Assembly (NCBI GenBank): GCA_021737325.1
Contig: JAIPED010000002.1
Location: forward strand, 1 to 59,297
DNA: 59,297 nucleotides
From: Deltaproteobacteria bacterium
Lineage (GTDB): Bacteria > Desulfobacterota > Syntrophia > Syntrophales > JAIPED01
Reading direction: 5' to 3'
The number at the start of each line of letters is the position of its first letter. Positions within the stretch are counted from its first letter, which is position 1. Of the stretch, positions 1,275 to 44,575 are shown in pieces. The notes under the pieces are model-generated. The model was not told where the DNA came from and searched no databases. It worked only from the letters and a program-made list of their open reading frames with translations. The position numbers and the translations under genes were made by a program.

Positions 1275-1311
1275 AGTATTTATTTAAAAATCTCCCGATA
1301 TACTTTTAAGA

Positions 1312-2991
1312 TTACTTCGGGAATAGCGCAAAGTGTAACCTTGCTTTTGACATCGGCAAATTGTTTTTCGTGCGGGTCGTCGCCAAGCGAAAAAACATAA
1401 GTGTTAAAATGCCCCTTGATTTTTTAATCGCTTTTTTGAAATCATCTATCGCTTCCTCGTAAAAAACAATGCCGAGGTATTTATCGCTGTTTTTGAAAAT
1501 TTTAAAATCGCTTTCGTCCTGCACCAATTCAAAGGCGTTTTCACGAATACAAAGCATTTCCGTTGATTCATTAACAAGTTTCCGCTTGTTTCTGTCTGTC
1601 GGCTCGGCTTCCACAAAGTCGCAAGTGTAATACTTCAAATTGCCGCCAAGCCCAGCGACATTTTCGCCTTTTAGATTTTTATGTCCTTTTAAAACTTTCT
1701 TTATTCTAGGATAGCAAACTTCTGTACAAATATTATTCTCATTATTTGTGCAAAGAATGAACTGACGACTTCCCTTATCTTCTTGATTAAGGTCCAAAAC
1801 TGCATGTCCGGTTGTACCTGACCCTGCAAAAAAATCTAAAATAACAGCATTACTTTCTGCACCATATCTTAAAAAGAATTTTATTAACTCGGTTGGTTTT
1901 GGATTTTCAAAAATGTCTTTCTTGCCAAAAATTTCTGTCAATTCATTTGTCCCGTCTGCTGTCGTGGCTAAATCGTATAAAATGCTTCGTTCCTTAATTT
2001 TTTTTATAGTTTCTCCGTCAAAATAGATTTTTTCATAAGGAATCCAACGACCATTTTTTTCTTGCCAAAAGACTAGGTCTTTCTCAATCAACATATCCAT
2101 GCGCTTTTTGCCAACTCTCCAACGCCCATCTCCACCGTCTGGCGCAATAGGATAAATATTTTTACCGTTAGGAGCTTTGATTGGAAAATACATTTTGGGA
2201 CGGTCTTCTCTCCTTGCGGTATTGCCCCATTTTGCTAGTTTTACGGCAGTAAATTTTCCGCGTTCATCTTTTTTGTTAAATTCTGATTCACTAACTGGGA
2301 TTTCTTCATCTTTCCATGCAAAATTTTCTGATTTCGCATAAACAAGGATATATTCATGCTCTGTAACAAAGTATGAATCAGCTTGGCCGCCGCCTTCTTT
2401 TTTTCTCCATATCAACGCACCAACAAAATTTTTGTCTCCAAATATTTCATCGCACAAAAGTCTTAATGGTGCTTGTTCTATATTATCTATGCTTATAAAA
2501 ATGGCTCCTTCTGGTTTTAATAAATTTTTAGCAAGCTTTAACCTCTTTTCCATAACAGAGAGCCATTTACTGTGTCTAAATGGATCTTCGCTATCAACAA
2601 ATTTATCATTGTAGCGAAAATCATTTCCGCCTTTTACACCGCGGTTATACGGAGGATCAATGTAAATCAAATCAACAGCTTCTTGGTGCGTAAAATTCAA
2701 AACGGCAAGCGAATGATAATTGTCGCCTTCAATCAGCAGATTAACTGGCTTGCCTTTTTCGCCGTTTATTTCTTTGCCTTTAACTTCTTTCAAAATCGGA
2801 AACGGTTTGCCCGCCATTTCATTGGGGAACATTTCGCTCGGCGTTCGCGCGTCGGGATTGATGAGAATATCAATTTTTTCTTCCGGCAAGTTCCTATGCC
2901 AAACAAGGCCGTATTTCGTCTCTTTGATACGGCGAAGCTCTTTTATCAATTCCTCTTTTGACCAATTGTCGTAATTTATTTTTCTTGCCAT
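1312..2991 (-). CDS. mod: Type III (beta-class) DNA methyltransferase Mod subunit, with the C-terminus apparently frameshifted
   Basis: IYIDPPYN (motif IV) lies upstream of FFAGSGTTGHAV (motif I), which is the beta-class order typical of Type III Mod. The gene sits directly upstream of res on the same strand. The last 37 aa of the track ORF look out of frame (see finding). Confidence 0.85.
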   Translation of the reverse strand: MARKINYDNWSKEELIKELRRIKETKYGLVWHRNLPEEKIDILINPDARTPSEMFPNEMAGKPFPILKEVKGKEINGEKGKPVNLLIEGDNYHSLAVLNFTHQEAVDLIYIDPPYNRGVKGGNDFRYNDKFVDSEDPFRHSKWLSVMEKRLKLAKNLLKPEGAIFISIDNIEQAPLRLLCDEIFGDKNFVGALIWRKKEGGGQADSYFVTEHEYILVYAKSENFAWKDEEIPVSESEFNKKDERGKFTAVKLAKWGNTARREDRPKMYFPIKAPNGKNIYPIAPDGGDGRWRVGKKRMDMLIEKDLVFWQEKNGRWIPYEKIYFDGETIKKIKERSILYDLATTADGTNELTEIFGKKDIFENPKPTELIKFFLRYGAESNAVILDFFAGSGTTGHAVLDLNQEDKGSRQFILCTNNENNICTEVCYPRIKKVLKGHKNLKGENVAGLGGNLKYYTCDFVEAEPTDRNKRKLVNESTEMLCIRENAFELVQDESDFKIFKNSDKYLGIVFYEEAIDDFKKAIKKSRGILTLMFFRLATTRTKNNLPMSKARLHFALFPK

Positions 2992-2995
2992 AGGA

Positions 2996-3211
2996 TTATT
3001 TGATTAAATCATCAACGCCGACATTCAATGCTTTGGCGATTCTCGTTAGCGTTTCAATGGTTGGATTCGGGTTTGCGCCCGATTCGACCGTTACGACCGT
3101 GTTGAGCGACAAACCCGCCAGTTTGGACAGGAGGTCTTGCGAGATGCCTTTTTCTTGGCGCAATTTCTTTAGGTTTTTGCCGATCTTTGACTGGGGATTA
3201 TTGTTTGACAC
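2996..3211 (-). CDS. XRE-family helix-turn-helix regulator (controller-like protein of the R-M operon)
   Basis: 71 aa, with LKKLRQEKGISQDLLSKLAGLSLNTVVTVESG, a typical HTH_3/XRE pattern. It has a GTG start, and its stop lies 4 nt before the mod start. Confidence 0.75.
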   Translation of the reverse strand: MSNNNPQSKIGKNLKKLRQEKGISQDLLSKLAGLSLNTVVTVESGANPNPTIETLTRIAKALNVGVDDLIK

Positions 3212-3310
3212 AGCTCCTCACAATAGATGCCATTATAGCGGGCAGAAATTGTTTTTAGAATTCAAAAATCCCTTCAAAATCTTGGTTTCTGCCAATCCTG
3301 AGCGAAGCGA

Positions 3311-3350: not shown

Positions 3351-3438
3351 TGGCGGAGAGAACAGGATTCGAACCTGCGTAGAGTTTCCCCTAACACGCT
3401 TTCCAAGCGTGCGCCTTCAGCCACTCGGCCATCTCTCC
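3351..3438 (-). tRNA. tRNA-Ser (anticodon GGA), 88 nt, CCA encoded
   Basis: The reverse complement folds as a class II tRNA. Acceptor stem is GGAGAGA/TCTCTCC and the T-arm is GCAGG-TTCGAAT-CCTGT. The anticodon stem-loop is CACGC-TTGGAAA-GCGTG. It has a long variable arm and ends GCCA. Confidence 0.93.
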
Positions 3439-3466
3439 GTTTTATGCGACACGGATATAAACCAAC

Positions 3467-3560
3467 TGGCGGAGAGAGGGGGATTCGAACCCCCGTGGGG
3501 GCTTTTGACCCCCAAACCGATTTCGAGTCGGTCCCGTTACGACCACTTCGGTACCTCTCC
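3467..3560 (-). tRNA. tRNA-Ser (anticodon CGA), 94 nt, CCA encoded
   Basis: Acceptor stem is GGAGAGG/TCTCTCC (one G-U pair) and the T-arm is GGGGG-TTCGAAT-CCCCC. The anticodon stem-loop is ACCGA-CTCGAAA-TCGGT. It has a long GC-rich variable arm. Confidence 0.93.
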
Positions 3561-18372: not shown

Positions 18373-19797
18373 GTGGGAAATAATGTTTCAGCAATTTTGC
18401 AGAGTCTTCCCAAGATGGATGATTTATTAGGCGGTGTTAAGGATGAGCTTGGTTCTTTGCTTTCCATCGCGGTTATTAAGCGCCTCTGTCAGCAGGTGGT
18501 TAGCAAAAAGCGTGAAGAGCTACTCGCGGAGATGACCGCAGCAGGTTCCCCCACCATCCTCAAATCTAAAGAAGAGCTCCGCGAAGCGATCATTGGGGAA
18601 GTCATGTTTCTTGCCACATCACTGATAAATCCTCGCCTCAAACGAGTTATTAACGCCACGGGGGTTGTGCTACATACCAACCTGGGACGCTCCCCCTTGA
18701 GCGCCCGTGCCCTTTGTGGGGTTGTGGCGAGTGCCATGGGATATTCCAATCTAGAGTTTTCTCTAGAAGATGGCAAACGGGGGTTGCGCTATGACAATCT
18801 CAGAGAATTGATTTGCTCCATAACGGGGGCCGAAGATGTAGTGGTTGTGAACAATAATGCCGCGGCAGTTATGCTCATTTTGGATACCATAGCGTTTGGC
18901 AGGGAAGTTATTGTGTCTCGTGGAGAGCTGGTGGAAATAGGCGGTGGTTTTCGCGTTCCTGATGTGATGAAAAAAAGCGGCGCCTTGCTCAAGGAAGTGG
19001 GCACCACCAACCGTACCCACATTGATGATTATGCACGGGCGCTAACATCCAGCACGGGGCTGTTGCTTAAGGTGCACGCCAGCAATTTTAAGATGGTGGG
19101 TTTTTGCAATGATACTCCGCTATCAGAATTGGTTGCTTTGGGCAGGGAGCATCGCATTCCTGTTGCCTACGATGTCGGTAGCGGGAGTCTTGTCGATCTA
19201 TCACGGTACGGGATAGAAGGGGAACCGATGCTGGCCGAGATATTGGCTTCGGGGGTGGATGTTATTTCCATCAGTGGTGATAAGCTTCTCGGCGGGCCAC
19301 AGGCTGGCATCATTTTGGGCAAGCGGGAAGTTATCCAAACGATCGCCCAAAACCCGCTCAACCGTGCTTTGCGGGTGGACAAGCTCACCCTTGCGGCGTT
19401 GGAAGGAACACTCATTGATTATCTCCAAGACGAAGAGGTTGTTTGTCAAAGTATCTATCCTTTGCGTTACATTTCTCGGACTCCTGCATTTCTCAAAAAA
19501 GAGGCACGCATTCTGACGAAGACGATAAAAAAAAGCTGCGGCAATAAATTTTCCTTGGAAGAGTTAGCGGGTAAATCCTTTGCCGGTGGTGGTGCTCTTC
19601 CTGGCTACGAGCTTGATTCCATCCTTGTTGCTCTAGAAAATGCAACATTAACTGCGGAGCAAATAGCCACAAAATTACGAATGGCGGAAGTTCCCGTTAT
19701 CGTTAGAGTGGCCAATGATAAGGTTCTTTTCGACCTCAGAACGCTGGAGCAGGATGACTACGCAGAAATCGCCTTGGCGTTATGCGAGTTGTTGTAG
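18373..19797 (+). CDS. selA: L-seryl-tRNA(Sec) selenium transferase
   Basis: HTNLGRS and the PLP-lysine motif ISGDKLLGGPQAGII; about 470 aa. Confidence 0.9.
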   Translation: MGNNVSAILQSLPKMDDLLGGVKDELGSLLSIAVIKRLCQQVVSKKREELLAEMTAAGSPTILKSKEELREAIIGEVMFLATSLINPRLKRVINATGVVLHTNLGRSPLSARALCGVVASAMGYSNLEFSLEDGKRGLRYDNLRELICSITGAEDVVVVNNNAAAVMLILDTIAFGREVIVSRGELVEIGGGFRVPDVMKKSGALLKEVGTTNRTHIDDYARALTSSTGLLLKVHASNFKMVGFCNDTPLSELVALGREHRIPVAYDVGSGSLVDLSRYGIEGEPMLAEILASGVDVISISGDKLLGGPQAGIILGKREVIQTIAQNPLNRALRVDKLTLAALEGTLIDYLQDEEVVCQSIYPLRYISRTPAFLKKEARILTKTIKKSCGNKFSLEELAGKSFAGGGALPGYELDSILVALENATLTAEQIATKLRMAEVPVIVRVANDKVLFDLRTLEQDDYAEIALALCELL

Positions 19798-33647: not shown

Positions 33648-34814
33648 ATGCAGATTGCAGATCGTTTAAGCAAAATCCCGCCGTATCTGTTTATGGAGTT
33701 ACGAAAAAAAATCAACAAGGCCAAGGCGGATGGCATTGATGTTATTAGCCTCGCCATTGGGGATCCTGTGGAAGCGACGCCCACAAGAGTTGTTGAGGAG
33801 CTTGCCAAGGAGGCGAAGAAGGCGGAAAACCACCGCTATCCCACCGATGAAGAGAAAGGGATGCTGGCTTTTCGTACCGAGGTCGCCAGGTGGTATAAGC
33901 GGCGTTATGGGGTAACGGTTGATCCTCAAGGAGAAGTTCTCGGGCTTATCGGCTCCAAAGAGGGCTGTCATCACTTTGTTCTTGCTTGTATAAATCCCAT
34001 GGATACGGTCTTAATGACAGATCCTGGATATCCTGCCTATCGTTCCAGTATTTTACTAGGGGGGGCAGAGCCTTACAATGTGCCAATTCTATTGAAGAAT
34101 AACTTTTTACCCATTCTATCCGATATTCCCACGGAAATAGCCAAAAAGGCTACCGGGATTTTTTTGAACTACCCCAACAACCCGACGGGTGCCTGTGCGA
34201 CAAAAGAGTTTTTTGCTGATTTGGTGCGCTTCGCTAAGGATTTTGACATTACGGTTTGTTGCGATAATCCGTATTCTGAAATTGTTTTTGCCGACCAGGA
34301 ACGGCTGAGCTTCCTTTCCGCCGAAGGGGCAAAAGATGTGGGGGTGGAACTAAACTCTCTCTCTAAGCCTTTCAACATGACCGGCTGGCGCATCGGCATG
34401 GCGTTGGGCAACGCGGATATCATTGCGGCGATGAGCAAGGTTAAAGAAAACACGGATTCAGGCGTTTTTAATCCGATACAATTAGCGGCGATACACGCCC
34501 TCCAGCATGAGGAGGGTACAACCAAAGAGATGCTTTCCATTTATCAAAGGCGGCGCGAACTTGTTTTAGCAACACTGAAATCTATCGGAATAGATTTCAA
34601 CCCTCCTCAGGGGACTTTCTACCTCTGGGTGCCAACACCAAATGGTGTCAGTGCCATTGATTTTACCAATAGACTATTTGATAAGACAGCCGTTGTGGTG
34701 GCGGCTGGAACTGCCTACGGGCAATATGGAGAAGGTTACATCAGGATATCGTTAACCGTTTCCGATGATAGGCTAACGGAAGCGATGCAACGCATAAAAA
34801 AAGAATTTGCATAG
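33648..34814 (+). CDS. dapL: LL-diaminopimelate aminotransferase
   Basis: N-terminus IPPYLFMELRKK and PLP-lysine motif SLSKPFNMTGWRIG; adjacent to dapF. Confidence 0.8.
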   Translation: MQIADRLSKIPPYLFMELRKKINKAKADGIDVISLAIGDPVEATPTRVVEELAKEAKKAENHRYPTDEEKGMLAFRTEVARWYKRRYGVTVDPQGEVLGLIGSKEGCHHFVLACINPMDTVLMTDPGYPAYRSSILLGGAEPYNVPILLKNNFLPILSDIPTEIAKKATGIFLNYPNNPTGACATKEFFADLVRFAKDFDITVCCDNPYSEIVFADQERLSFLSAEGAKDVGVELNSLSKPFNMTGWRIGMALGNADIIAAMSKVKENTDSGVFNPIQLAAIHALQHEEGTTKEMLSIYQRRRELVLATLKSIGIDFNPPQGTFYLWVPTPNGVSAIDFTNRLFDKTAVVVAAGTAYGQYGEGYIRISLTVSDDRLTEAMQRIKKEFA

Positions 34815-34830
34815 AAGGAGGAGTTTTTCC

Positions 34831-36030
34831 TTGACTAAAATGAACACACCCAGCGCCAGATTATCGCCGTCCTCAAAAGGAACAAACCAGGGTAGGACAT
34901 CTCCACGATTAAAGATCCTTATCGCACTACTGATTGCCATATTAATGCTCACAAGTATCGCGCAATTCATTATTATCATTAAAGGCTATAATGACCGCAA
35001 AGAGATGCTGGCTTTATTGGCAAACACCAGTATGGAGATGGACAAGATCGCTACCGTCATTTCCTCGGGGAAGGGAGGTGCTAACGAAGCCCTCTTAAAG
35101 ATGAAGGCGGAACTTGATAGCTACATAGCCGTTAATAGGCAGGGTGAGGGAAAAACATCCGCTGTTGCTCTTCTTCCGCGGGAGGTTAATGTGCGTAAGA
35201 GCGTTGCTCCGATAGTCTGGGGGAACAAGGGAGAGCATGTTCTTTTGGTGGAAAAGGAAAAAAGCGAGCTTCACCTCTTCCGATTTGAGGAAAGCGGCAC
35301 CACTTTGCTCAAAACATATCCTTGTGTCGTGGGAGAGAATAAGCAGGATAAACAAAGAGAAGGCGATATGGCCACTCCTGTCGGTGTTTATTTCTTAGAT
35401 TCCCACATTCCTGATAAAGATTTGGCGGAATTGTACGGCGCGGGAGCCTATGTTATGAACTATCCGAGTCTGCTTGATCACAAAAAAGGCAAGCAGGGTT
35501 CAGGTATCTGGTTACATGGCCATCCCCGTGACCAAAAACTCGGGGAAGATAAAACTTCCACCAGGGGTTGTGTCGTTGTTCGTAACGAGGACCTGTTGGA
35601 CCTGAAAGACAAGATTCGGTTAGCGCACACACCGATTGTGATTACCGAGAAGATGCAGACCGTTGGGACACAGCAGAACGAACAGAATAGGGATGCGGTG
35701 CTGGCCTTTCTGCAAGAGTGGCGCTTGGCGTGGGAAAGCAAGGATGTGTCAAAGTTTGTCAGCTTGTATTCACCTGCTTTTATAAACAACCAGGGCATGG
35801 ATTTAAAAGCGTTCAAAGCGCAAAAAGAACAGGTTGCCAAAGGCAAGAAATATATCAAGGTAATGGCAAGCGATGTTTTTATCCTAACCACAGGACTTGG
35901 CGAAGGGGTTTTTGTTGTGAAGTTTTTGCAAGACTACCGCTCCGATAATTACGCCTCAAAATCCAATAAACTTTTATACATCAAGAAAACGGAGAGCGGC
36001 TTCGTTGTTGTTGGTGAGTCTTCTTATTAA
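34831..36030 (+). CDS. L,D-transpeptidase (YkuD) family protein with an N-terminal membrane anchor
   Basis: GIWLHGHP...STRGCVVV catalytic His/Cys motif. The start is uncertain: TTG 34831 (9 nt after GGAGG), ATG 34840, or the track start 34807. Confidence 0.75.
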   Translation: MTKMNTPSARLSPSSKGTNQGRTSPRLKILIALLIAILMLTSIAQFIIIIKGYNDRKEMLALLANTSMEMDKIATVISSGKGGANEALLKMKAELDSYIAVNRQGEGKTSAVALLPREVNVRKSVAPIVWGNKGEHVLLVEKEKSELHLFRFEESGTTLLKTYPCVVGENKQDKQREGDMATPVGVYFLDSHIPDKDLAELYGAGAYVMNYPSLLDHKKGKQGSGIWLHGHPRDQKLGEDKTSTRGCVVVRNEDLLDLKDKIRLAHTPIVITEKMQTVGTQQNEQNRDAVLAFLQEWRLAWESKDVSKFVSLYSPAFINNQGMDLKAFKAQKEQVAKGKKYIKVMASDVFILTTGLGEGVFVVKFLQDYRSDNYASKSNKLLYIKKTESGFVVVGESSY

Positions 36031-36079: not shown

Positions 36080-37273
36080 ATGTTCACTGAGTTTTTTTAT
36101 TCTCTAAAAGAGCGGGGAGTCCCCGTTACTCCGACATCTTTCATCAGGCTACAAGAGGCTCTGGCGAAGGGTGTTATCAATTCTTTGGACGATTTTTATA
36201 TCGCCGCTCGCGCCATCCTCGTCAAATCAGAACGCTATTTTGATACCTATGATCAGGTTTTTTCCCATCATTTCCAGGGGGTTGAACTTCCAGTAGCAAC
36301 GGAGTTGGAAATATCTTCAGCCATAAGGTCAATGCTGGACGAGTGGTTACGGGATCCGGCAGAACTGGCGCGTGCACTCGGACTTTCAGCAAAACAGGCG
36401 CAGGACATGAGCGCCGAGGAACTACTCCAGTATTTTATGGATAGGTTAAAAGAGCAAAAAGAAGCGCATCACGGAGGTAATCGCTGGATTGGCACAAGAG
36501 GAACCTCCCCTGTAGGGCATTCAGGTTATAACCCTGGGGGAATGCGGGTAGGCGGTGCGAGCGGAGGGAAATCCGCCAGCAAGGTAGCCTTGGAGCGCCG
36601 TTATCGGGATTATGCCCAAATGGGGATACTTACTGAATCCCAGGTTGGCGAGGCGCTCAAACGGCTAAGAAATATGCAGCCTTTCGGTCCTCGCGATGTT
36701 GTTAATATCGGTGAAACCATTTATGAGACGATGCGCAAGGGTGGCGAGATAGAAATTGTTTTTGCTAGACGGCTTTCCGACAGGCTCAAAGTGATACTCC
36801 TCATTGACAATGGCGGTTGGTCGATGGATCCGTATATTCCCGTGGTGCAAACGCTTTTCGATCATGCCCGCTCACATTTTAAAGAGCTAACAAGCTACTA
36901 TTTCCACAACACGATATACTCTGAAGTTTGGCATGACCCTCAACGCTGGACTCAACCTAAGGCCGTTGAAGAATTTTCCCGCCTCGATCCAGAAACCAGA
37001 ATAATTTTTATTGGCGATGCGAGTATGGGGCCATATGAGTTGATGAATAAAGATGGTTCTATCTATGTAGGTGACAGACAAAGTAGGGCAAGCATTGATC
37101 GTCTGCAATTTATCGCCAGAACATTTCGTCATAGCGTTTGGTTGAATCCTCTTCCTGCCGAGGAATGGGGTTATGCTTGGACAGTGGGAGTAATAGGAAG
37201 CATCTTTCCGATGTTTGAACTATCGCTGGACGGTTTGGAAAAGGCTGTTACGAGGTTGAAGACAAAGGGCTAG
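36080..37273 (+). CDS. VWA-domain protein, CoxE-like
   Basis: N-terminus MFTEFFYSLKERGVPVTPTSF and a VWA segment VILLIDNGGWSMDP, typical of CoxE-like partners of MoxR ATPases. Confidence 0.75.
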   Translation: MFTEFFYSLKERGVPVTPTSFIRLQEALAKGVINSLDDFYIAARAILVKSERYFDTYDQVFSHHFQGVELPVATELEISSAIRSMLDEWLRDPAELARALGLSAKQAQDMSAEELLQYFMDRLKEQKEAHHGGNRWIGTRGTSPVGHSGYNPGGMRVGGASGGKSASKVALERRYRDYAQMGILTESQVGEALKRLRNMQPFGPRDVVNIGETIYETMRKGGEIEIVFARRLSDRLKVILLIDNGGWSMDPYIPVVQTLFDHARSHFKELTSYYFHNTIYSEVWHDPQRWTQPKAVEEFSRLDPETRIIFIGDASMGPYELMNKDGSIYVGDRQSRASIDRLQFIARTFRHSVWLNPLPAEEWGYAWTVGVIGSIFPMFELSLDGLEKAVTRLKTKG

Positions 37274-37417: not shown

Positions 37418-38677
37418 GTGAAAAAAAACGGTCGTATCGCATTATCCGTGCTGGCATTTTTTAGCTTTGCGGGGTTTATTTTTTTAGTAACAGATACTCT
37501 TGCCAATCAGACTAAGGATAGTAGTTGTGTTCGTTGCCACACCAATGCAGAAACTCTACAGCAACTACATATTGTTGATCCCAAGCTGTTGGAGCCCGCG
37601 GGGGAAGGGTGAGCGGGAGCGCCTCCGGCAGTTAAGCCGGAAGAAATGTATCGTGGCTTTCTAGTTGATGGGCGTTTGGTTGATTCCGATCCCCATTTTG
37701 CCAAAGGTTGCCAAGCATGTCATGGTGGTAATCATACCGCCGAAGCCAAAGAAAGCGCCCATGTCGGTTTGAATAAAAAGCCTTCCAGAAATCTGGCTAC
37801 ATGTGGCGAGTGCCATAAAGGTATAAGTGAAAAATTTTCCACCTCACTCCATTACACGAGCCATGGTCAAAAAATGGGGGTGAAGCCTCGCTTCAACGAG
37901 GGTGAATTCAAACACTTTGAGGAAAAGATTTTTGAACAGAGTTGTCGCAGTTGCCATGCTTCTTGTGGCGATTGCCATGTTAAAGGGGCACCTGTCAGTG
38001 GGATTAGCATTGGACTAATTGAGGGGCACAAGTTTATCCGTAAAAACGAAGAAAAAACCTGTGCCTTTTGCCATGGCGGTCGGGTTTATACCGAGTTTAC
38101 GGGAGAATATGGTGGTTCGCCTGATGTTCATTTCACGAAAGGAATGCAGTGTCTTGATTGTCATCAGCAGATGCACGGAGATGGCACCCTGTATAATAGC
38201 AAACAGGAAGTGAAGAGCCGCCCCAAATGTTCTAACTGCCATAACATGGCAGCTTCCGATTTGAGCGTTAGGCTCAGAACAATTCATGGGATTCATCAAG
38301 AAAAAGCGAGCTGTTATGCCTGCCATGCCGATGGCAACTACCGCAATTGCTACTCTTGCCATGGTGGACACTCAGAGGCCCAGCCAGGGTTTATTCTTGG
38401 GAAAAATCCCCGCAACACTGGACAGCTAACCACCCTGCGGGTTATTCCCACGCTTAACGATACCTTTACGAAGCAAGGATTGAATATGTCCAATTTCGAT
38501 GCCCTCCCCAACTATTGGGATAGCCCCGTGCACGCCATAAAAAAGAAGACGCGGCGCACCCGAGATTGTGATGCTTGTCATGTGGATAGAAGGAGCTTCC
38601 TTGAAGAAGGCGAATTAATCGAAGGTGGTGCGAAGGCCAACAAAGAGTTAATACCAAGCATAAAGCCGATAAAATAA
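37418..38677 (+). CDS. Undecahaem c-type cytochrome with an in-frame UGA (selenocysteine) after the first haem motif
   Basis: GTG start and an N-terminal signal/anchor ALSVLAFFSFAGFIFLV. There are 11 CxxCH motifs. TGA at 37610..37612 is in frame with the 343-aa track ORF, in the context EPAGEG-U-AGAPPAVKPEEMYRG. The downstream ORF alone has no signal peptide. A SECIS-like hairpin lies 11 nt after the TGA. Confidence 0.75.
37622..37643 (+). promoter_or_regulatory. SECIS-like stem-loop for the cytochrome
   Basis: TCCGGC-AGTTAA-GCCGGA (6 bp, extendable by one more pair across a mismatch). The core stem starts at 37624, 11 nt 3' of the TGA. Confidence 0.55.
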
Positions 38678-38723: not shown

Positions 38724-39635
38724 ATGAAAGGTTTGGGTATGAGTAAAAAGGTGTTGTTGTTGGTGATGGTAGCCGTGCTGTTTTTGGCTTTGCCGTCAAT
38801 GCTCCTGGCAAAGAGGGAAGGAAATGTTGTTACGACTGAATGGTTGGGAAAGAACCTTTCCAAAAAGGATTTGGTTATTGTCGATGTGAGAAATTTTGCG
38901 GATTATAAAGCCGGGCATGTTCCCGGTAGCGTCAACATTCCTCTTAGCTCGCTGGCCATAGACAAGGGCGGGCTTAAAAATGAGGTTCCCGCAAATGAAG
39001 ATCTTATCGACATTATCTCAGAAAAGGGGATTGGTTCTTCCGCGCCGGTTGTTGTGGTAGGCTTGGCAGGAGAGAAGTTGCCCGATCGTGCGGGGCTGAC
39101 TCGTGCCGCTTGGACCTTGAAATACGCGGGCGTGCAGGATGTGTATGTTCTAGACGGAGGATTTGAGCAGTGGTTGGCGGAAAAGAAGCCTGTTGTTACC
39201 GAACTTCTTGATGTCAAAGAGAAGAAGTATCGCGGAAAAATAAAAGAGGGGCTTTTTGTTAATCTGTCAGGATTGCAAAGTGCTAAAGCCGCGGGTGCCG
39301 TAGTTGTGGATGTACGGGAGCTAGTGTTTTTCAACGGCGAACAGAAGTTGCCTTTTGTTGGGCAGTTTGGTCATGTTGAGGGCGCTCTTAATCTGCCCAC
39401 CGCGCAGGTATTTGAGGGTAAATCCTACAAGGGAAGAAAAGATCTATTAGCACTGGCAGAGACTGTTGTCGGCACGGACAAAGCCAAGCAAATAGTCGTT
39501 TATTGCGATTCGGGAAGAGTCGCGACGATTTGGGCTTTGTTGTTAGATGGACTTGGTTATAGCAATGTGGCCGTGTATGATGGTTCCGCGCAGGAATATG
39601 GTGCGGAAAATGCACCTCTCAAACTCGTGAAGTAA
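38724..39635 (+). CDS. Periplasmic tandem-rhodanese sulfurtransferase
   Basis: Signal peptide MKGLGMSKKVLLLVMVAVLFLALPSMLLA. The first domain has no active Cys. The second domain has the active loop VVYCDSGRVA. Confidence 0.8.
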   Translation: MKGLGMSKKVLLLVMVAVLFLALPSMLLAKREGNVVTTEWLGKNLSKKDLVIVDVRNFADYKAGHVPGSVNIPLSSLAIDKGGLKNEVPANEDLIDIISEKGIGSSAPVVVVGLAGEKLPDRAGLTRAAWTLKYAGVQDVYVLDGGFEQWLAEKKPVVTELLDVKEKKYRGKIKEGLFVNLSGLQSAKAAGAVVVDVRELVFFNGEQKLPFVGQFGHVEGALNLPTAQVFEGKSYKGRKDLLALAETVVGTDKAKQIVVYCDSGRVATIWALLLDGLGYSNVAVYDGSAQEYGAENAPLKLVK

Positions 39636-39645
39636 CAAGCTTACT

Positions 39646-39675
39646 GGCGGGGGCTTGCCAGCTCCCGCCTATTTT
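39646..39675 (+). terminator. Intrinsic terminator after the first rhodanese gene
   Basis: GGCGGGGGC-TTGCCA-GCTCCCGCC (9 bp including one G-U pair) followed by TATTTT. Confidence 0.6.
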
Positions 39676-39740
39676 CATCAGCGTCAACGGACATTTCGCT
39701 GTTCCATCTGGGCTTATGTAGTGGGAGGACCAATTTTAAT

Positions 39741-40463
39741 ATGAAATTTCTTGGGAAGCTATTAATTATAGTGGTTTTTGTGTGCCTGATGCTGTCTGGT
39801 GCCTTTACCGTATTCGGGGAAGAAATGAAGATTATTTCCCCCGCTGAACTTGCCCAAATTATTCCTAATAAAAAAATCGTTCTTATAAATACAATGAGTA
39901 AAATTGAATGCGATGACCACTCCATCGTGGGCTCTACCTGTATTCCTGTAGAAACAATGGAAGGTGCCGCAAGGAAGCTTCCCCAAGATAGGCTGGTAGT
40001 TTTTTATTGCGAATCAGAGAGTGGCACTAGATGCCGTCAGGCCGCAAGCATTGCCCGGGCGCAAGGTTTGCAGAATATAGCCATTCTCGGGGGCGGCTCT
40101 GTTGGTTGGCGTAAAGCGGGTTTTGACGAAGTTTCCTTAGAGAGAATTCGTCGCAGGGTGATTGTTAGCCTTGGTCCTGTAGCGTTACGAGATTTTATCA
40201 ACAAAAATAAATCTAACATATTCATCCTGGATATTCGCTCCGAAGAGGCGTTTCACAAGGGGCATATCAAGGGTGCAGAGAATATTCCCTTTTACCTCCT
40301 CCACGAACGATATTCCGCAATTCCTTCGGGTAAAAAGATAGTCGTTGTTGACGACAAAGGTCTTCGCTCCTTCCTTGCCGCTTCCTATCTGGTGGACAAG
40401 GGTTTTCGTGATGTTATTCGCCTAGCTCGCGGGATGGCTGGTTGGAATGAAGGTACTAATTGA
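39741..40463 (+). CDS. Periplasmic tandem-rhodanese protein (the second of two)
   Basis: Signal peptide MKFLGKLLIIVVFVCLMLSGAFTVFG. The first domain has the loop FYCESESGTRC. The second domain has Asp in place of Cys (VVVDDKGLRS). Confidence 0.75.
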   Translation: MKFLGKLLIIVVFVCLMLSGAFTVFGEEMKIISPAELAQIIPNKKIVLINTMSKIECDDHSIVGSTCIPVETMEGAARKLPQDRLVVFYCESESGTRCRQAASIARAQGLQNIAILGGGSVGWRKAGFDEVSLERIRRRVIVSLGPVALRDFINKNKSNIFILDIRSEEAFHKGHIKGAENIPFYLLHERYSAIPSGKKIVVVDDKGLRSFLAASYLVDKGFRDVIRLARGMAGWNEGTN

Positions 40464-40492: not shown

Positions 40493-42343
40493 ATGTTTAG
40501 ACGCTTTTTTTTGTTTATGGTTGGTCTTCTTTTTATTTTTGGTGGCGATTTATACGCCCGCGAGGACATCAGATGCTTGCGGTGCCATAGCACAATAGTA
40601 AACAAGGAAGCGTTTTTAAACTCTGTTCATGGTTACAACGATTGCGTTAGTTGCCATCGCGGCATCACCAACATTGAAGAACACATCGCGGGAGAGCAGA
40701 AACCGACCATGGCCGCTTGTGCGCAGTGTCATAAGGATATCGCGGAGAAGCATAAGCAAGGATTTCATTATCTACAACTGGATTTTAGATGCTGGGATTG
40801 TCATAACAATATCCACGCTATCAACAAAACGAAGAAAGAAAGTTTTAAAAAGCAGGTCGTCTTGCAGTGCACCAAATGTCATGCCAACGATGAGTATTCC
40901 GATTCTGGTCATGCCGAGGCGGTCATCAAAAGAGGCAACACCGATGCTGCAACCTGCTCTGATTGCCACGGGATTCATGACACAAAGGTTTTTCATACCT
41001 CGCTTGCGGAATATCCCCAGGAAGCGCGCAAATTCTATACGGATAAATGTGTTAAATGCCACTCAGATGAAGAAATAGCCAAAAGAAACAATCTGAACCC
41101 CAATTTAGTTAAGTTATACCACGAGACTTACCACGGCAAAATAGAGAATATTGGTTATTATTCGACGGTTGCGGGATGTGCCGATTGCCATCGCAGTCAT
41201 AATATTCTGCCCAAAAATGATACTCGCTCCAGCATTCATCCCGACAATTTGGTAAAGAATTGCGGTCGGTGCCATAGCGGTTTTGCTAAAGAGTTTGTTA
41301 GCTATAAAGCCCACCCTGATTATCGCGACCGAGAAAACTATCCTGCACTGTATTGGACATTCGTCTTTATGTCCGGATTGCTCATATTCACTTTCGGATT
41401 TTTCTGGATACACACAGGCCTGTGGTGGCGAAAGTCCTATTGGGAAAGCCATAAAGAGGAGAAGCGCGGGATTGTGCATCAAGCTCCTCCAGACACCAGG
41501 ATGTATGGGAAAAATGTTATGATGGTGCGCCGCTTTAAATTGCGCGACCGGATACTGCATTTCATCCTGATAATAGTGTTCTTCACCCTGGTAATAACGG
41601 GATTCCCGCAAAAATATCACACCTATGAATGGGCTAAGGCCGCTCTTGCACTTTTGGGAGGGGCGCATATGGCGGGATACCTCCATCGTGTTGCCGCCGG
41701 AATATTGCTGGCCGAGTTTGTCTTTGTTGCTGTTCTCTCGTTGCTCTTCTTGTTTAGAAAGCGCAAAAAGGGCGAGACGGTCATCACAAGGCTTTTAGGT
41801 CCCGATTCGCTGTTCCCCAATCGCAAGGATTGGGAGGATATGCGGGGGATGTTTTTGTGGTTCTTTGACAAAGGGGAAAGGCCTCGCTTTGAGCGCTGGA
41901 CCTACTGGGAAAAATTCGACTTTTGGGCGGTATTTTGGGGGATGTTTGCTATCGGAGGTTCAGGTTTACTCCTCTGGAAGGCGGAATTATCGTCGTACAT
42001 CGTTCCCGGCTGGGTTTTGAATGTGGCAACACTGATACATTCCGAAGAGGCGTTGTTGGCGACGCTGTTCATCTTTACAGTGCACTTTTTTAACACCCAT
42101 TTTATTCCCGATAAGTTCCCGATGGATAAGATGATCTTTACTGGAAGATACACCGTGGATGAATTTTACACTAACCGTCCGTTGGAATTTGAGCGGGTTG
42201 TACAGGAAGGCAGGCTTGAAGAGTTTCAAGCAAAGCATCCGAACATATATCTAAAAATTATTTCATTGGTGTTTGGTTTAGTTTGTCTGTTTACGGGAAT
42301 GGCGCTAACAGTTTTGATTCTGTGGTCATTTTGGCAACATTAA
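40493..42343 (+). CDS. Nine-haem c-type cytochrome fused to a membrane cytochrome-b (FdnI/HydC-like) domain; CbcL-like quinol oxidoreductase
   Basis: A signal peptide and 9 CxxCH motifs in the N-terminal half. The C-terminal half has multiple TM segments with conserved His (ILHFILIIVFF, YLHRVAAG, LIHSEEALLATLFIFTVHFFNTH). Confidence 0.75.
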   Translation: MFRRFFLFMVGLLFIFGGDLYAREDIRCLRCHSTIVNKEAFLNSVHGYNDCVSCHRGITNIEEHIAGEQKPTMAACAQCHKDIAEKHKQGFHYLQLDFRCWDCHNNIHAINKTKKESFKKQVVLQCTKCHANDEYSDSGHAEAVIKRGNTDAATCSDCHGIHDTKVFHTSLAEYPQEARKFYTDKCVKCHSDEEIAKRNNLNPNLVKLYHETYHGKIENIGYYSTVAGCADCHRSHNILPKNDTRSSIHPDNLVKNCGRCHSGFAKEFVSYKAHPDYRDRENYPALYWTFVFMSGLLIFTFGFFWIHTGLWWRKSYWESHKEEKRGIVHQAPPDTRMYGKNVMMVRRFKLRDRILHFILIIVFFTLVITGFPQKYHTYEWAKAALALLGGAHMAGYLHRVAAGILLAEFVFVAVLSLLFLFRKRKKGETVITRLLGPDSLFPNRKDWEDMRGMFLWFFDKGERPRFERWTYWEKFDFWAVFWGMFAIGGSGLLLWKAELSSYIVPGWVLNVATLIHSEEALLATLFIFTVHFFNTHFIPDKFPMDKMIFTGRYTVDEFYTNRPLEFERVVQEGRLEEFQAKHPNIYLKIISLVFGLVCLFTGMALTVLILWSFWQH

Positions 42344-42395: not shown

Positions 42396-43760
42396 GTGGT
42401 GATGGATAAAAAAAGGGTTGCTCTTCGTCAGGTGGATGTCCTTGTTAAGTTTTTTTCTTCGACATCGCTGGGCATTTTTCTTGTACTGATGCTGGCGGGG
42501 CTATCAATGGTGGGAACATTGGTGTCGCCCGTTGCTCTTCAAGCTCCGGAAGGTTTTTGGGGAAATCTCGCCTATGCGCTAAACCTTCACGATATCTATC
42601 ATTCATTCTTGTTTTTCGTTGTGGCTCTGTTGTTTTTGGTGAATCTGATTTTATGTTCCCTTAAGCGTCTGCCGCTGGCGATTGCCAACTATCGCAAGAA
42701 GATAGACACTGCGAACATGGGAATGCCTCCTATGGAAACGGTGTTTGTCGACGGTCTTAGCACCGAGATTGCGAACCAGCGTTTAGCCAAGGTTGCCAAG
42801 CGGTTTGAGCGTCAGGCAGGTCCATCACAGCAGCAAGCGCAGCTTTTTGCGTTTGATAAAGGGCGTATTTCCTATCTAGGTGTTTATATCGTTCACCTGG
42901 CCGTGGCCATTTTGACCATCGGTGCGGTTGTTAGTGCTCTTTGGGGAATTTCCGGGCAGGTAAAAATTGCGGAAGGACAAGAGGTATCGGAGGTAAGGTT
43001 AAGTAACGGTACAGTTCATGATCTGGGATTTTTTGTCCGTTGCGATAAGTTTACCGTTGATTTTTATGATGATCAACGCCCCAAAACATATCGTTCCGAT
43101 GTTGTTTTTACTAAAGGTAACGAAACGCTGGCGGCGGCAATCCGCGTTAACCATCCGGCCATTTTTGGAGATTACAGCTTTTATCAGGCAAGTTTTGGTG
43201 TGGAAGAAGGTAAGGCGATCTTTACGATAAAAGATGGCAAGGGTCTTAAAAAGCAACTGAAAATGCAGGAGGGCGATGTTGTCCGGTTTGATGATAATTT
43301 AAGCATCACCGTTGTTCGGGTCGAAGCCAACATGATGAATGCTGGACCTGCGGTAAACATGGTTCTTGAGCCCAAGGGAAAGCATCCACAAACACTTTGG
43401 CTATTCCAAAATATAAAAGAGATTGCCCGTGACAATCCAGGTATCATTGAGCGTTTCCCCGCATTCAATCCGCAGGTACTCGGTTTCTATTCATTTGATC
43501 TGCTGGGGTTGGAGGACAACTTTTACACCGTTTTGGAGATGCGTAATGATCCTGCCATAGCGATCGTTGCGATGGGCGGTCTGTTGCTAGTCGCAGGGTT
43601 GATATTGGTCTTTTACTATTCTCACCGTCGTGTTTGGATAACTATCGAGGCGGTTAATGCCGGCATTAGTTTTGCGATTGCGGCAAAGAGCAACAAGGAT
43701 ACGATAGGAATGACACGGGAAATTGAGTTGATCAAAGATATTATCCGGGGGAAACAATGA
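42396..43760 (+). CDS. resB: System II cytochrome c biogenesis protein ResB/Ccs1
   Basis: N-terminal TM segments, a large soluble domain and a C-terminal TM. It is translationally coupled to ccsA by a 4-nt overlap. Confidence 0.8.
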   Translation: MVMDKKRVALRQVDVLVKFFSSTSLGIFLVLMLAGLSMVGTLVSPVALQAPEGFWGNLAYALNLHDIYHSFLFFVVALLFLVNLILCSLKRLPLAIANYRKKIDTANMGMPPMETVFVDGLSTEIANQRLAKVAKRFERQAGPSQQQAQLFAFDKGRISYLGVYIVHLAVAILTIGAVVSALWGISGQVKIAEGQEVSEVRLSNGTVHDLGFFVRCDKFTVDFYDDQRPKTYRSDVVFTKGNETLAAAIRVNHPAIFGDYSFYQASFGVEEGKAIFTIKDGKGLKKQLKMQEGDVVRFDDNLSITVVRVEANMMNAGPAVNMVLEPKGKHPQTLWLFQNIKEIARDNPGIIERFPAFNPQVLGFYSFDLLGLEDNFYTVLEMRNDPAIAIVAMGGLLLVAGLILVFYYSHRRVWITIEAVNAGISFAIAAKSNKDTIGMTREIELIKDIIRGKQ

Positions 43761-44575
43761 ACACAAAAATATTTGCGTTGGTAACTTTTATTTATTTGTT
43801 TTCATTTGTTCTCTATCTAATCTCTGTGTCTTCCGAGAGGAAAAAGATTTCTTCCGTAGCTAACTATGTGACAGGGTTAGGTTTTTTGTTACATGCGGTT
43901 GGACTCATCACCCGCTGGGTGGAATCACATCAGCAGGGTTTTGGATATGCCCCTCTCTCCAATTTTTATGAATCGTTAGTGTTCTTCGCTTTTTCGCTAG
44001 TTGCCGTTTATTTCTACACAGCAAGAAGGGCAAAAAGCGATGCCATGGGTGTTTTTATCCTTCCCCTGGCATTTTTACTCATGGCCTTTGCCTCAATCAC
44101 TCCAGGGATGAGCTCGGCAATAGAGCCGTTAATTCCTGCCCTCCAAAGTAATTGGCTCATTAGCCATGTGATAACCTGTTTTCTCGGTTATGCAGGATTT
44201 ACCCTTGCGTTTGCCTTGGCGATTATCTATTCCCTTCGAGGAACGAAACTTGGTTTTCTCTGCCGTGGAATTTCCCCAGAACTCACCGAACAGCTCATGT
44301 ACACCACGGCGGCTTTTGGTTTTGTTCTCTTAACGATAGGCATTATTACCGGATCTATATGGGCACATTACGCTTGGGGTTCTTATTGGAGTTGGGATCC
44401 GAAAGAGGTTTGGTCGCTTATCACCTGGCTGGTCTATGTGGTTATGTTGCATTCTCGTTATGTTAGGGGTTGGGGTGGCAAAAAGATGGCGATTTTTGCG
44501 CTAATCGGTTTTGTTTGTGTCATTATTACCTATCTCGGTGTGAACTATCTCCCTGGCTTGCATAGCTATCTTTAA
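43757..44575 (+). CDS. ccsA: System II cytochrome c biogenesis protein CcsA/ResC (haem-handling W-rich motif)
   Basis: WAHYAWGSYWSWDPKEVWSL tryptophan-rich WWD motif; polytopic membrane protein. Confidence 0.88.
   Translation: MNTKIFALVTFIYLFSFVLYLISVSSERKKISSVANYVTGLGFLLHAVGLITRWVESHQQGFGYAPLSNFYESLVFFAFSLVAVYFYTARRAKSDAMGVFILPLAFLLMAFASITPGMSSAIEPLIPALQSNWLISHVITCFLGYAGFTLAFALAIIYSLRGTKLGFLCRGISPELTEQLMYTTAAFGFVLLTIGIITGSIWAHYAWGSYWSWDPKEVWSLITWLVYVVMLHSRYVRGWGGKKMAIFALIGFVCVIITYLGVNYLPGLHSYL

Follow-up and report, generated by a model that had tools for sequence, protein, structure and literature searches.

MccSep (ExtKL, GSU2937-2936) of Geobacter sulfurreducens was predicted to be a selenoprotein in 2007 (PMC1914089) and was characterized in 2026; it carries five hemes, with selenocysteine (Sec) 325 beside a His/Cys-ligated heme, acts as a polysulfide reductase that reduces selenite less well, and is essential for sulfur respiration (PMC13510729). 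In a May 2026 review that tabulates the known prokaryotic selenoprotein families, the heme-related entries are ExtKL (NF040886), the GSU2204 family (NF041027), and Sec-containing forms of octaheme tetrathionate reductase (TIGR04315) (PMC13188914). The subject of this analysis is a gene for an undecaheme cytochrome c in a 59,297-nucleotide stretch of contig JAIPED010000002.1 from a member of the Syntrophales (hereafter, the window), in which an in-frame UGA is a strongly supported candidate for a Sec codon. By its LysS, whose best matches (64-71% identity) carry the names Syntrophaceae, Smithellaceae, or Syntrophales, the organism is a divergent relative of Syntrophales. The family of this cytochrome is not listed in the review (PMC13188914), and the fused protein matches no NCBIfam selenoprotein model, with NF040886, NF041027, and TIGR04315 all lacking a match at E ≤ 10; both results agree with the initial annotation of the window, which had not recognized the family as a described selenoprotein. 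The closest NCBIfam matches were far below cut-off and at motif level only, specifically ExtM, ExtN, and ExtO of the “selenite/tellurite reduction operon.”

A Single Gene With an In-Frame UGA

Existing annotation splits the gene into open reading frames (ORFs) of 64 and 343 amino acids. The first (37418..37612) has a GTG start codon, and its product runs from a basic N-terminus through a hydrophobic leader and the motif CVRCH to the end ...LLEPAGEG; the TGA at 37610-37612 is followed by eleven sense codons (37613-37645, AGAPPAVKPEE) and then, in frame, by the ATG of the second ORF (37646..38677). Read through the TGA, the gene has the following features:

37418..38677, + strand: recoded gene for an exported undecaheme cytochrome c, a 419-residue pre-protein with Sec predicted at residue 65 (same frame, single TGA)
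37418..37504, + strand: signal peptide, approximately residues 1-29, with MKKNGR, a hydrophobic core, and TLA followed by NQ (by inspection of the translation)
37526..37540, + strand: heme-binding motif 1 (C37-V-R-C-H41), 5′ of the UGA; CxxCH(T) is invariant in 83/83 aligned read-through proteins
37610..37612, + strand: UGA codon 65, putatively read as Sec (GEG-U-AGAPP); TGA is kept across relatives

The 64 codons of the upstream piece encode heme motif 1 and the signal peptide, which is the sole export signal of the whole fused protein, and the 343 codons of the downstream piece encode the other ten heme motifs. The 11 CxxCH motifs of the fused product begin at residues 37, 98, 129, 176, 183, 215, 245, 271, 299, 311, and 384 and contain every one of its exactly 22 Cys. 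Multiheme Pfam models matched above cut-off (Cytochrome_C7, Cytochrom_c3_2, Paired_CXXCH_1, and MtrC-domain), and the 11 invariant CxxCH motifs, the export leader seen by inspection, and the conserved distal ligands are together those of a c-type multiheme cytochrome. Most of this had been read from the DNA beforehand in the initial annotation and was reproduced here: the coordinates of two same-frame ORFs parted only by a TGA and 11 sense codons, the translated signal and first CxxCH upstream with ten more motifs downstream, the count of 22 Cys all within such motifs in the 419-residue product, the TCCGGC-AGTTAA-GCCGGA stem-loop starting 11 nucleotides (nt) past the TGA (at 37624-37641), and a selA gene 18 kb away (at 18373-19797, by TIGR00474). 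A scan of the window for further in-frame TGA read-through candidates gave no credible one.

To follow the UGA across relatives, the fused sequence was used in a protein search, which recovered 442 relatives, most of them annotated at ∼345 amino acids and beginning exactly at the start of the window’s second ORF. Additionally, scanning one genome for each GTDB species yielded 372 loci with relatives (372 species-level genomes), from which the best 80 were kept; in these, tblastn matches run through the stop, and nearly all come from metagenome-assembled genomes of Syntrophales, Smithella, Syntrophus, and Syntrophorhabdaceae. At the codon aligned with 37610-37612, 79 of these 80 best loci have TGA, the single exception being a CGA in locus L070, and the isolate genome of the cultured Syntrophus gentianae (GCA_900109885.1, contig FOBS01000015.1), looked up separately, carries the same TGA arrangement, so that the codon is not an artifact of metagenome assembly. 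TGA also occupies this codon in two subfamilies of <50% protein identity, L089 and L090, which read GEG*AKAMAQLEPYEKVF and GMG*AGGLPPLEAF, respectively, where the asterisk stands for the UGA. All related loci encode, in frame upstream, a signal peptide or hydrophobic leader and CxxCHT...GEG, and the downstream frame goes on as AGAPPPV(K/R). In the spacer codons 3′ of the TGA, positions 1 and 2 are invariant and the third positions use all four bases; this variation at third positions only indicates that the stretch is translated in this frame. The orthologs thus have an in-frame UGA at the same codon with coding conservation on both sides, as is expected of a selenoprotein gene, and by this comparison the UGA is read through. 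Because the window is one sequence of quality not known, a sequencing or assembly error or a pseudogene might be suspected; however, the identical codon in 79 independent assemblies and an isolate genome, and the strong purifying selection on both halves of the gene, refute this explanation and leave it a negligible probability.

Gene callers and NCBI annotation, which give the relatives ∼345 amino acids, in effect treat the locus as two genes, a 64-amino-acid monoheme lipoprotein or peptide with a real stop and a ten-heme cytochrome from ATG 37646, possibly produced by translational coupling; 52 of 77 orthologs do have an ATG at this second start, with a purine-rich GGAAGA before it. The other 25, however, have TAT, TAC, TTC, CTG, or CAG in place of the ATG, and a signal peptide would be missing from the downstream product, though c-type heme attachment requires export. 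Moreover, selection acts at the amino-acid level on the 11 codons from TGA to ATG, a sense codon at the site keeps the ORF continuous in the rare non-TGA variants, and distant homologs are single polypeptides, some with Cys at the site. Two genes are thus a very improbable explanation. The arrangement that the initial annotation had named as contrary to its proposal, with a second, independently exported protein, was not seen in any related locus: every locus has the leader and heme 1 upstream in the same frame, the linker codons show the substitution pattern of translated sequence, and the second start is missing from a third of the orthologs. On these comparisons, 37418..38677 is a single gene, not two.

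A SECIS-Like Hairpin Downstream of the UGA

The codons after the UGA overlap a structure resembling a bacterial selenocysteine insertion sequence (SECIS):

37613..37623, + strand: 11-nt spacer from UGA to hairpin, coding for Ala-Gly-Ala-(Pro), by its codon-position pattern
37624..37641, + strand: SECIS-like hairpin, stem 37624-37629 with 37636-37641 and loop 37630-37635 (AGUUAA), by pair conservation and covariation

The hairpin, TCCGGC (37624-37629)-AGTTAA (37630-37635)-GCCGGA (37636-37641), has a 6-bp stem; folded alone, the window hairpin has an energy of -11.4 kcal/mol, and hairpin energies average -10.9 kcal/mol. All hairpin statistics come from an ungapped alignment of 77 sequences, in which 94.6% of cells at the six proposed pairs are paired, compared with at most 61.5% in controls with a slid 3′ arm. 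Three of the six pairs have changes on both sides (G-C to U-A, C-G to G-C, and C-G to U-A), and no shuffle reached the observed covariation score; RNAalifold recovered only part of the stem from the same alignment, and the explicit pair count is more informative. The loop G-U (37631-37632, at +21/+22 counted from the U of the UGA) is invariant. Third codon positions within the stem are nearly frozen (CCU in 74/77 and CCG in 72/77, with G in 75/77 and 77/77 in the 3′ arm) while those in the spacer are free, which indicates that the RNA is constrained, and not only the Pro-Pro-Pro-Val peptide.

The strongest evidence for a SECIS comes from the two distant subfamilies, in which the hairpins (GGCUC-AGUUA-GAGCC in L089 and GCCUCC-GUU-GGAGGC in L090) have unrelated stems, an identical spacing of exactly 11 nt from the UGA, and a retained loop G-U. 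The minimal fdhF SECIS of Escherichia coli and the Moorella hairpin bound by SelB are characterized by an 11-nt spacing and a loop G-U. In the bSECISearch literature, the apical loop reportedly lies ∼16-37 nt from the UGA with a G among its first positions; here, the loop begins 17 nt after the UGA and reads A/G-G-U-.... The spacer, the invariant G-U, the compensatory changes, and the spacing kept in distant subfamilies all agree with the suspicion first attached to this stem-loop, and on these features the hairpin behaves like a bacterial SECIS.

UGA, Cys, and Sense Codons at the Predicted Sec Site

To find more distant relatives, 1.84 billion cluster representatives were searched with a profile, which gave 1084 relatives (>1000 at E <1e-3), 134 of them at E <1e-30. 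The distant set that was aligned comprises 44 homologs that are not truncated at the Sec site, all of which have the 11-heme core and the nine invariant distal His. Cys stands exactly at the U column in 10 of the 44 (P0132, P0136, P0143, P0149, P0170, P0173, P0175, P0178, P0185, and P0236) and one position off in three more, typically in the context G-C-G-G (GEG-C-GG in P0185). Cys homologs at the Sec position, in this case distant ones, are a further mark of a selenoprotein, and the Sec/Cys pair is present in these alignments at the superfamily level, not among close orthologs. An absence of Cys homologs had been considered and was overturned once the distant representatives were examined.

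Five orthologs lack the TGA (L070, L083, L084, L085, and L086; codons CGA, TCA, GCA, TAC, and CGT). The hairpin is intact in the TCA (Ser) and GCA (Ala) variants and weakened in the CGA (Arg) variant, and the flanks have diverged in the TAC (Tyr) and CGT (Arg) variants; all look like secondary losses of Sec. Four residues after heme motif 6, G221, R222, P225, and Y239, are at least 99% conserved in Sec forms, and every one of the five non-Sec variants deviates at one or more of them, which hints that segment 221-239 and the Sec loop form one functional site. Sec use in L086 was checked through [NiFeSe] hydrogenase: the large subunit there (1276-3222) is a Cys-type [NiFe] enzyme (DPCMACAVH) and lies in three overlapping ORFs, which suggests assembly frameshift errors in this contig. 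An apparent replacement of Sec by Trp in the public proteins P0003 (L081) and P0050 (L082) was rejected, as the DNA has TGA translated with genetic code 4. These two full-length calls come from JGI and Logan on short contigs, and such a code-4 artifact can hide Sec codons and mimic Trp homologs; P0157, by comparison, has a genuine Trp codon (TGG) at the site.

The window also encodes a component of the Sec machinery:

18373..19797, + strand: selA, L-seryl-tRNA(Sec) selenium transferase (TIGR00474, 550.7 bits vs. a cut-off of 267.9)

The presence of selA suggests that the organism makes Sec. Elsewhere in the window, at 3351-3560 on the - strand, are two adjacent tRNA-Ser genes with anticodons GGA and CGA.

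Read-through without Sec would either place a near-cognate residue (Trp, Cys, or Arg) at the site or use the UGA as a regulatory brake responding to selenium supply or setting a product ratio, with the residue itself chemically idle. The tolerance of Arg, Ser, Ala, and Tyr in close orthologs and the TGG of P0157 would fit this explanation. It is opposed, however, by a hairpin with the spacing of the minimal E. coli SECIS and a SelB-type G-U loop signature, by distant subfamilies whose stems differ but whose 11-nt spacing is retained, by selA in the genome, and by Cys at the aligned position in many distant homologs, which is the classic Sec/Cys pattern. Furthermore, the loss of Sec coincides with changed invariant residues and a missing adjacent rhodanese, described below, which argues that the residue is functional; read-through without Sec is thus judged improbable. 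That the UGA at 37610-37612 encodes Sec is strongly supported by the comparative data. The proposal of the initial annotation, a Sec-encoding UGA in a multiheme cytochrome, with TGA or Cys expected at the position in orthologs, has thereby gained support from TGA conservation in close orthologs (79/80 loci), from hairpin covariation, and from the Cys aligned in 10 more distant homologs.

Gene Neighborhood and Proposed Function

Gene neighborhoods were compared across 86 loci, 81 with TGA and five without. Downstream of the cytochrome gene, the window encodes:

38724..39635, + strand: exported two-domain rhodanese with a single Cys, C261, in the active-site loop CDSGRV (PF00581, 114.5 bits; signal peptide)
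39741..40463, + strand: second exported two-domain rhodanese (PF00581, 92.4 bits; homolog downstream in 37/86 loci)
40493..42343, + strand: membrane protein with nine N-terminal CxxCH motifs fused to a cytochrome b-type domain (4-5 hydrophobic segments)
42396..44575, + strand: System II cytochrome c maturation, ResB-like (42396-43760) and CcsB (43757-44575), by profile matches

Rhodaneses are carriers of sulfane sulfur or selenium. The first rhodanese is directly downstream of the cytochrome in 61/81 TGA loci vs. 0/5 non-TGA loci (Fisher p = 0.0015), and in one distant homolog of 715 amino acids (P0151) the cytochrome is itself fused to two C-terminal rhodanese domains (PF00581, 129 bits). By eye, the N-terminal stretch of P0157 also resembles the end of a rhodanese domain; Pfam gave no confirmation. 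The second rhodanese has a sub-threshold match to NF041203, “rhodanese-related (seleno)protein” (54.8 bits vs. a cut-off of 115). In most related loci, the two rhodanese genes are separated by a further gene of ∼2-3 kb (e.g., L003, L005, and L014); the window has none there (39636-39740), and its rhodanese genes are ∼100 nt apart. In L084 and L085, which have no first rhodanese, a multiheme cytochrome of 665-683 amino acids directly follows the undecaheme gene. The membrane protein, syntenic in 34/86 loci, has a weak Ni_hydr_CYTB match (27.2 bits vs. a cut-off of 30.1) and weak FdnI-type matches. The ResB-like protein (PF05140, 234 bits) and CcsB (TIGR03144, 251 bits vs. a cut-off of 187.6) could be a dedicated or a general heme lyase; they also adjoin the cluster in L038, L063, and L085. 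The cytochrome gene is preceded by genes for a YkuD L,D-transpeptidase that also has a Cds6_C domain (34807-36030) and for a protein with a weak VWA/CoxE-like match (36080-37273), neither of which is syntenic with the cytochrome in other loci.

In the mechanism proposed from these data, SelB with Sec-tRNA(Sec) would bind the hairpin and insert Sec at codon 65, the pre-protein would be exported by its N-terminal signal peptide through the general secretory pathway, and eleven c-type hemes would be attached, plausibly by the ResB/CcsB system of the adjacent downstream genes. Once mature, the periplasmic protein would carry Sec in a glycine-rich loop, G-E-G-U-A-G-A-P-P, between heme 1 and heme 2. 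From context and analogy, and with a probability a little short of even, it would be the catalytic or terminal subunit of a reductase module that acts in the periplasm on sulfane sulfur, with polysulfide, persulfide, thiosulfate-type substrates, or possibly selenite as candidates. The membrane protein with nine hemes and a cytochrome b domain would draw electrons from the quinol pool, the exported rhodaneses would present sulfane sulfur as a Cys-persulfide, and the selenolate would attack the persulfide to form a Se-S adduct, which the heme chain would reduce with release of sulfide. This selenolate/heme logic has been shown experimentally for the unrelated MccSep (PMC13510729).

A selenoprotein with another role, such as an electron-transfer module for extracellular or interspecies transfer or for metal or selenite/tellurite reduction, in which Sec tunes or protects a heme and the rhodaneses serve elsewhere, is a less probable alternative that still carries some weight. 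Most of the family occurs in syntrophic Syntrophales, a group not known for sulfur respiration, the nearest NCBIfam matches, although sub-cut-off, are Ext cytochromes, and many loci encode a further cytochrome of ∼670 amino acids. The linkage to rhodaneses, with their cargo of sulfane sulfur or selenium, is tight, however, both in the TGA loci and in the fusion protein. The one characterized multiheme selenoprotein considered here, MccSep, likewise reduces polysulfide best and selenite less (PMC13510729).

Within the reductase proposal, Sec65 could be the distal axial ligand of one heme, forming a natural His/selenolate heme c, analogous in selenium to the His/Cys hemes of TsdA, SoxAX, and MccSep and catalytic for rhodanese-delivered sulfane sulfur; such a heme would bind the sulfur as a Se-S adduct and reduce that adduct. 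There is room for it, in that the conserved candidate distal ligands number 10 for 11 hemes (nine invariant non-motif His and Met243, 98%) and the protein has no other free Cys, and the U column of the superfamily is enriched in residues that ligate heme iron (Cys, Sec, His, Met, and Tyr). In many superfamily members, however, this column is a gap or holds a non-ligating residue, and Sec ligation is considered unlikely.

Weight of the Evidence

Several observations count against the reading of the locus as a Sec-containing reductase. Selenium in the polypeptide is a prediction from sequence comparison, and the proposed function comes from gene neighborhood, one fusion, and analogy. No Cys occurs in close orthologs (at least ∼50% identity), where the replacements are instead Arg, Ser, Ala, and Tyr; these proteins must be able at least to fold without the residue. 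As the stem-loop overlaps the conserved Pro-Pro-Pro-Val, it could be conserved in part because of the encoded peptide, and single-sequence folding of 37610-37660 (51 nt) is not significant (z = -0.75). No Rfam family matches the hairpin, although Rfam has no general bacterial SECIS model; scans of the whole window at the gathering threshold and of 37550-37720 at E ≤ 10 returned no SECIS family and only a chance miRNA match. Neither selB, selD, nor tRNA-Sec was found within the 59-kb window, where only selA documents the machinery. Structural comparison was similarly uninformative: the AlphaFold2 model of the ortholog P0003 is mediocre (pLDDT 67, with the Sec loop <50), a Foldseek search of the Protein Data Bank (PDB) with that model found nothing, and a PDB sequence search gave only weak nitrite-reductase motif matches, with no multiheme selenoprotein and no close solved structure.

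The significance is carried by comparison rather than by single-sequence folding, specifically by TGA at the same codon in nearly all of the best loci and by the covarying, conserved hairpin. As a whole, the locus is probably best explained as a single recoded gene for a Sec65-containing, exported undecaheme cytochrome, with a sulfane-sulfur reductase module as its inferred function.

If so, the gene adds a widespread selenoprotein family that is absent from selenoprotein catalogs and overlooked by current pipelines; public records instead show a “cytochrome c3 family protein” cut short at its N-terminus, which could be neither exported nor matured. Selenoprotein searches relying on close Cys homologs would miss the family. 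A homology-based search method for selenoproteins has been described (PMC12013277), and the restriction of Cys forms to distant relatives may be why homology-based searches have not reported it. The family would point to an unrecognized sulfur-linked, or selenium-linked, electron sink in syntrophic Syntrophales (e.g., Smithella and Syntrophus), organisms of importance in methanogenic digesters and sediments, and the cultured carrier S. gentianae makes the prediction directly testable.

Comparison With Known Systems

The window protein resembles MccSep in several respects. Each is a periplasmic multiheme c-type cytochrome of a Desulfobacterota host, split in annotation at an in-frame UGA with a SECIS-like hairpin behind it, and each has Sec and Cys variants across its family. 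Both also have a link to rhodaneses, as NCBIfam assigns the rhodanese ExtH and the Ext cytochromes to one selenite/tellurite reduction operon, and in both the selenolate probably attacks a chalcogen-chalcogen bond while the hemes supply electrons. The two nevertheless have no detectable homology (NF040886, E ≤ 10) and differ in architecture: the window protein has 11 hemes vs. five in MccSep, and its Sec is predicted at residue 65, in a Gly-rich loop after heme 1, whereas U325 of MccSep lies in a C-terminal Ig-like domain (D-G-U-P). MccSep requires a conserved heme-ligating Cys (C239) next to Sec, whereas the window protein has no Cys outside CxxCH motifs; and Cys forms arise within the MccSep family, whereas close orthologs of the window protein never have Cys.

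Sec members of TIGR04315 and the GSU2204 family (NF041027) are likewise heme-motif proteins of anaerobes with a UGA annotated or predicted as Sec; the window protein, however, matches neither model and differs from them in heme number and Sec position. TsdA and SoxAX are enzymes of sulfur metabolism with a His/Cys-ligated heme (PMC13510729). As in these enzymes, the window protein has one non-motif chalcogen residue (Sec here, Cys in distant homologs), which in TsdA and SoxAX is near or on the heme iron and takes part in S-S chemistry; however, no sequence similarity to them was found, and ligation by Sec is here only a candidate. In Wolinella succinogenes, Sud, a periplasmic rhodanese-type polysulfide-sulfur transferase, works with the polysulfide reductase Psr. 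The arrangement proposed for the window would similarly pair an exported rhodanese with a quinol-linked periplasmic sulfur reductase, although Psr, a molybdopterin enzyme rather than a cytochrome, lacks Sec.

The window protein is therefore filed as a selenoprotein that probably works like MccSep yet falls outside MccSep and every other listed family. The MccSep precedent tempers the novelty, but the architecture is distinct, and a second, independently evolved combination of selenium with a multiheme scaffold, shortly after MccSep, suggests that selenium-plus-heme chemistry is a recurrent solution for the reduction of chalcogen bonds.

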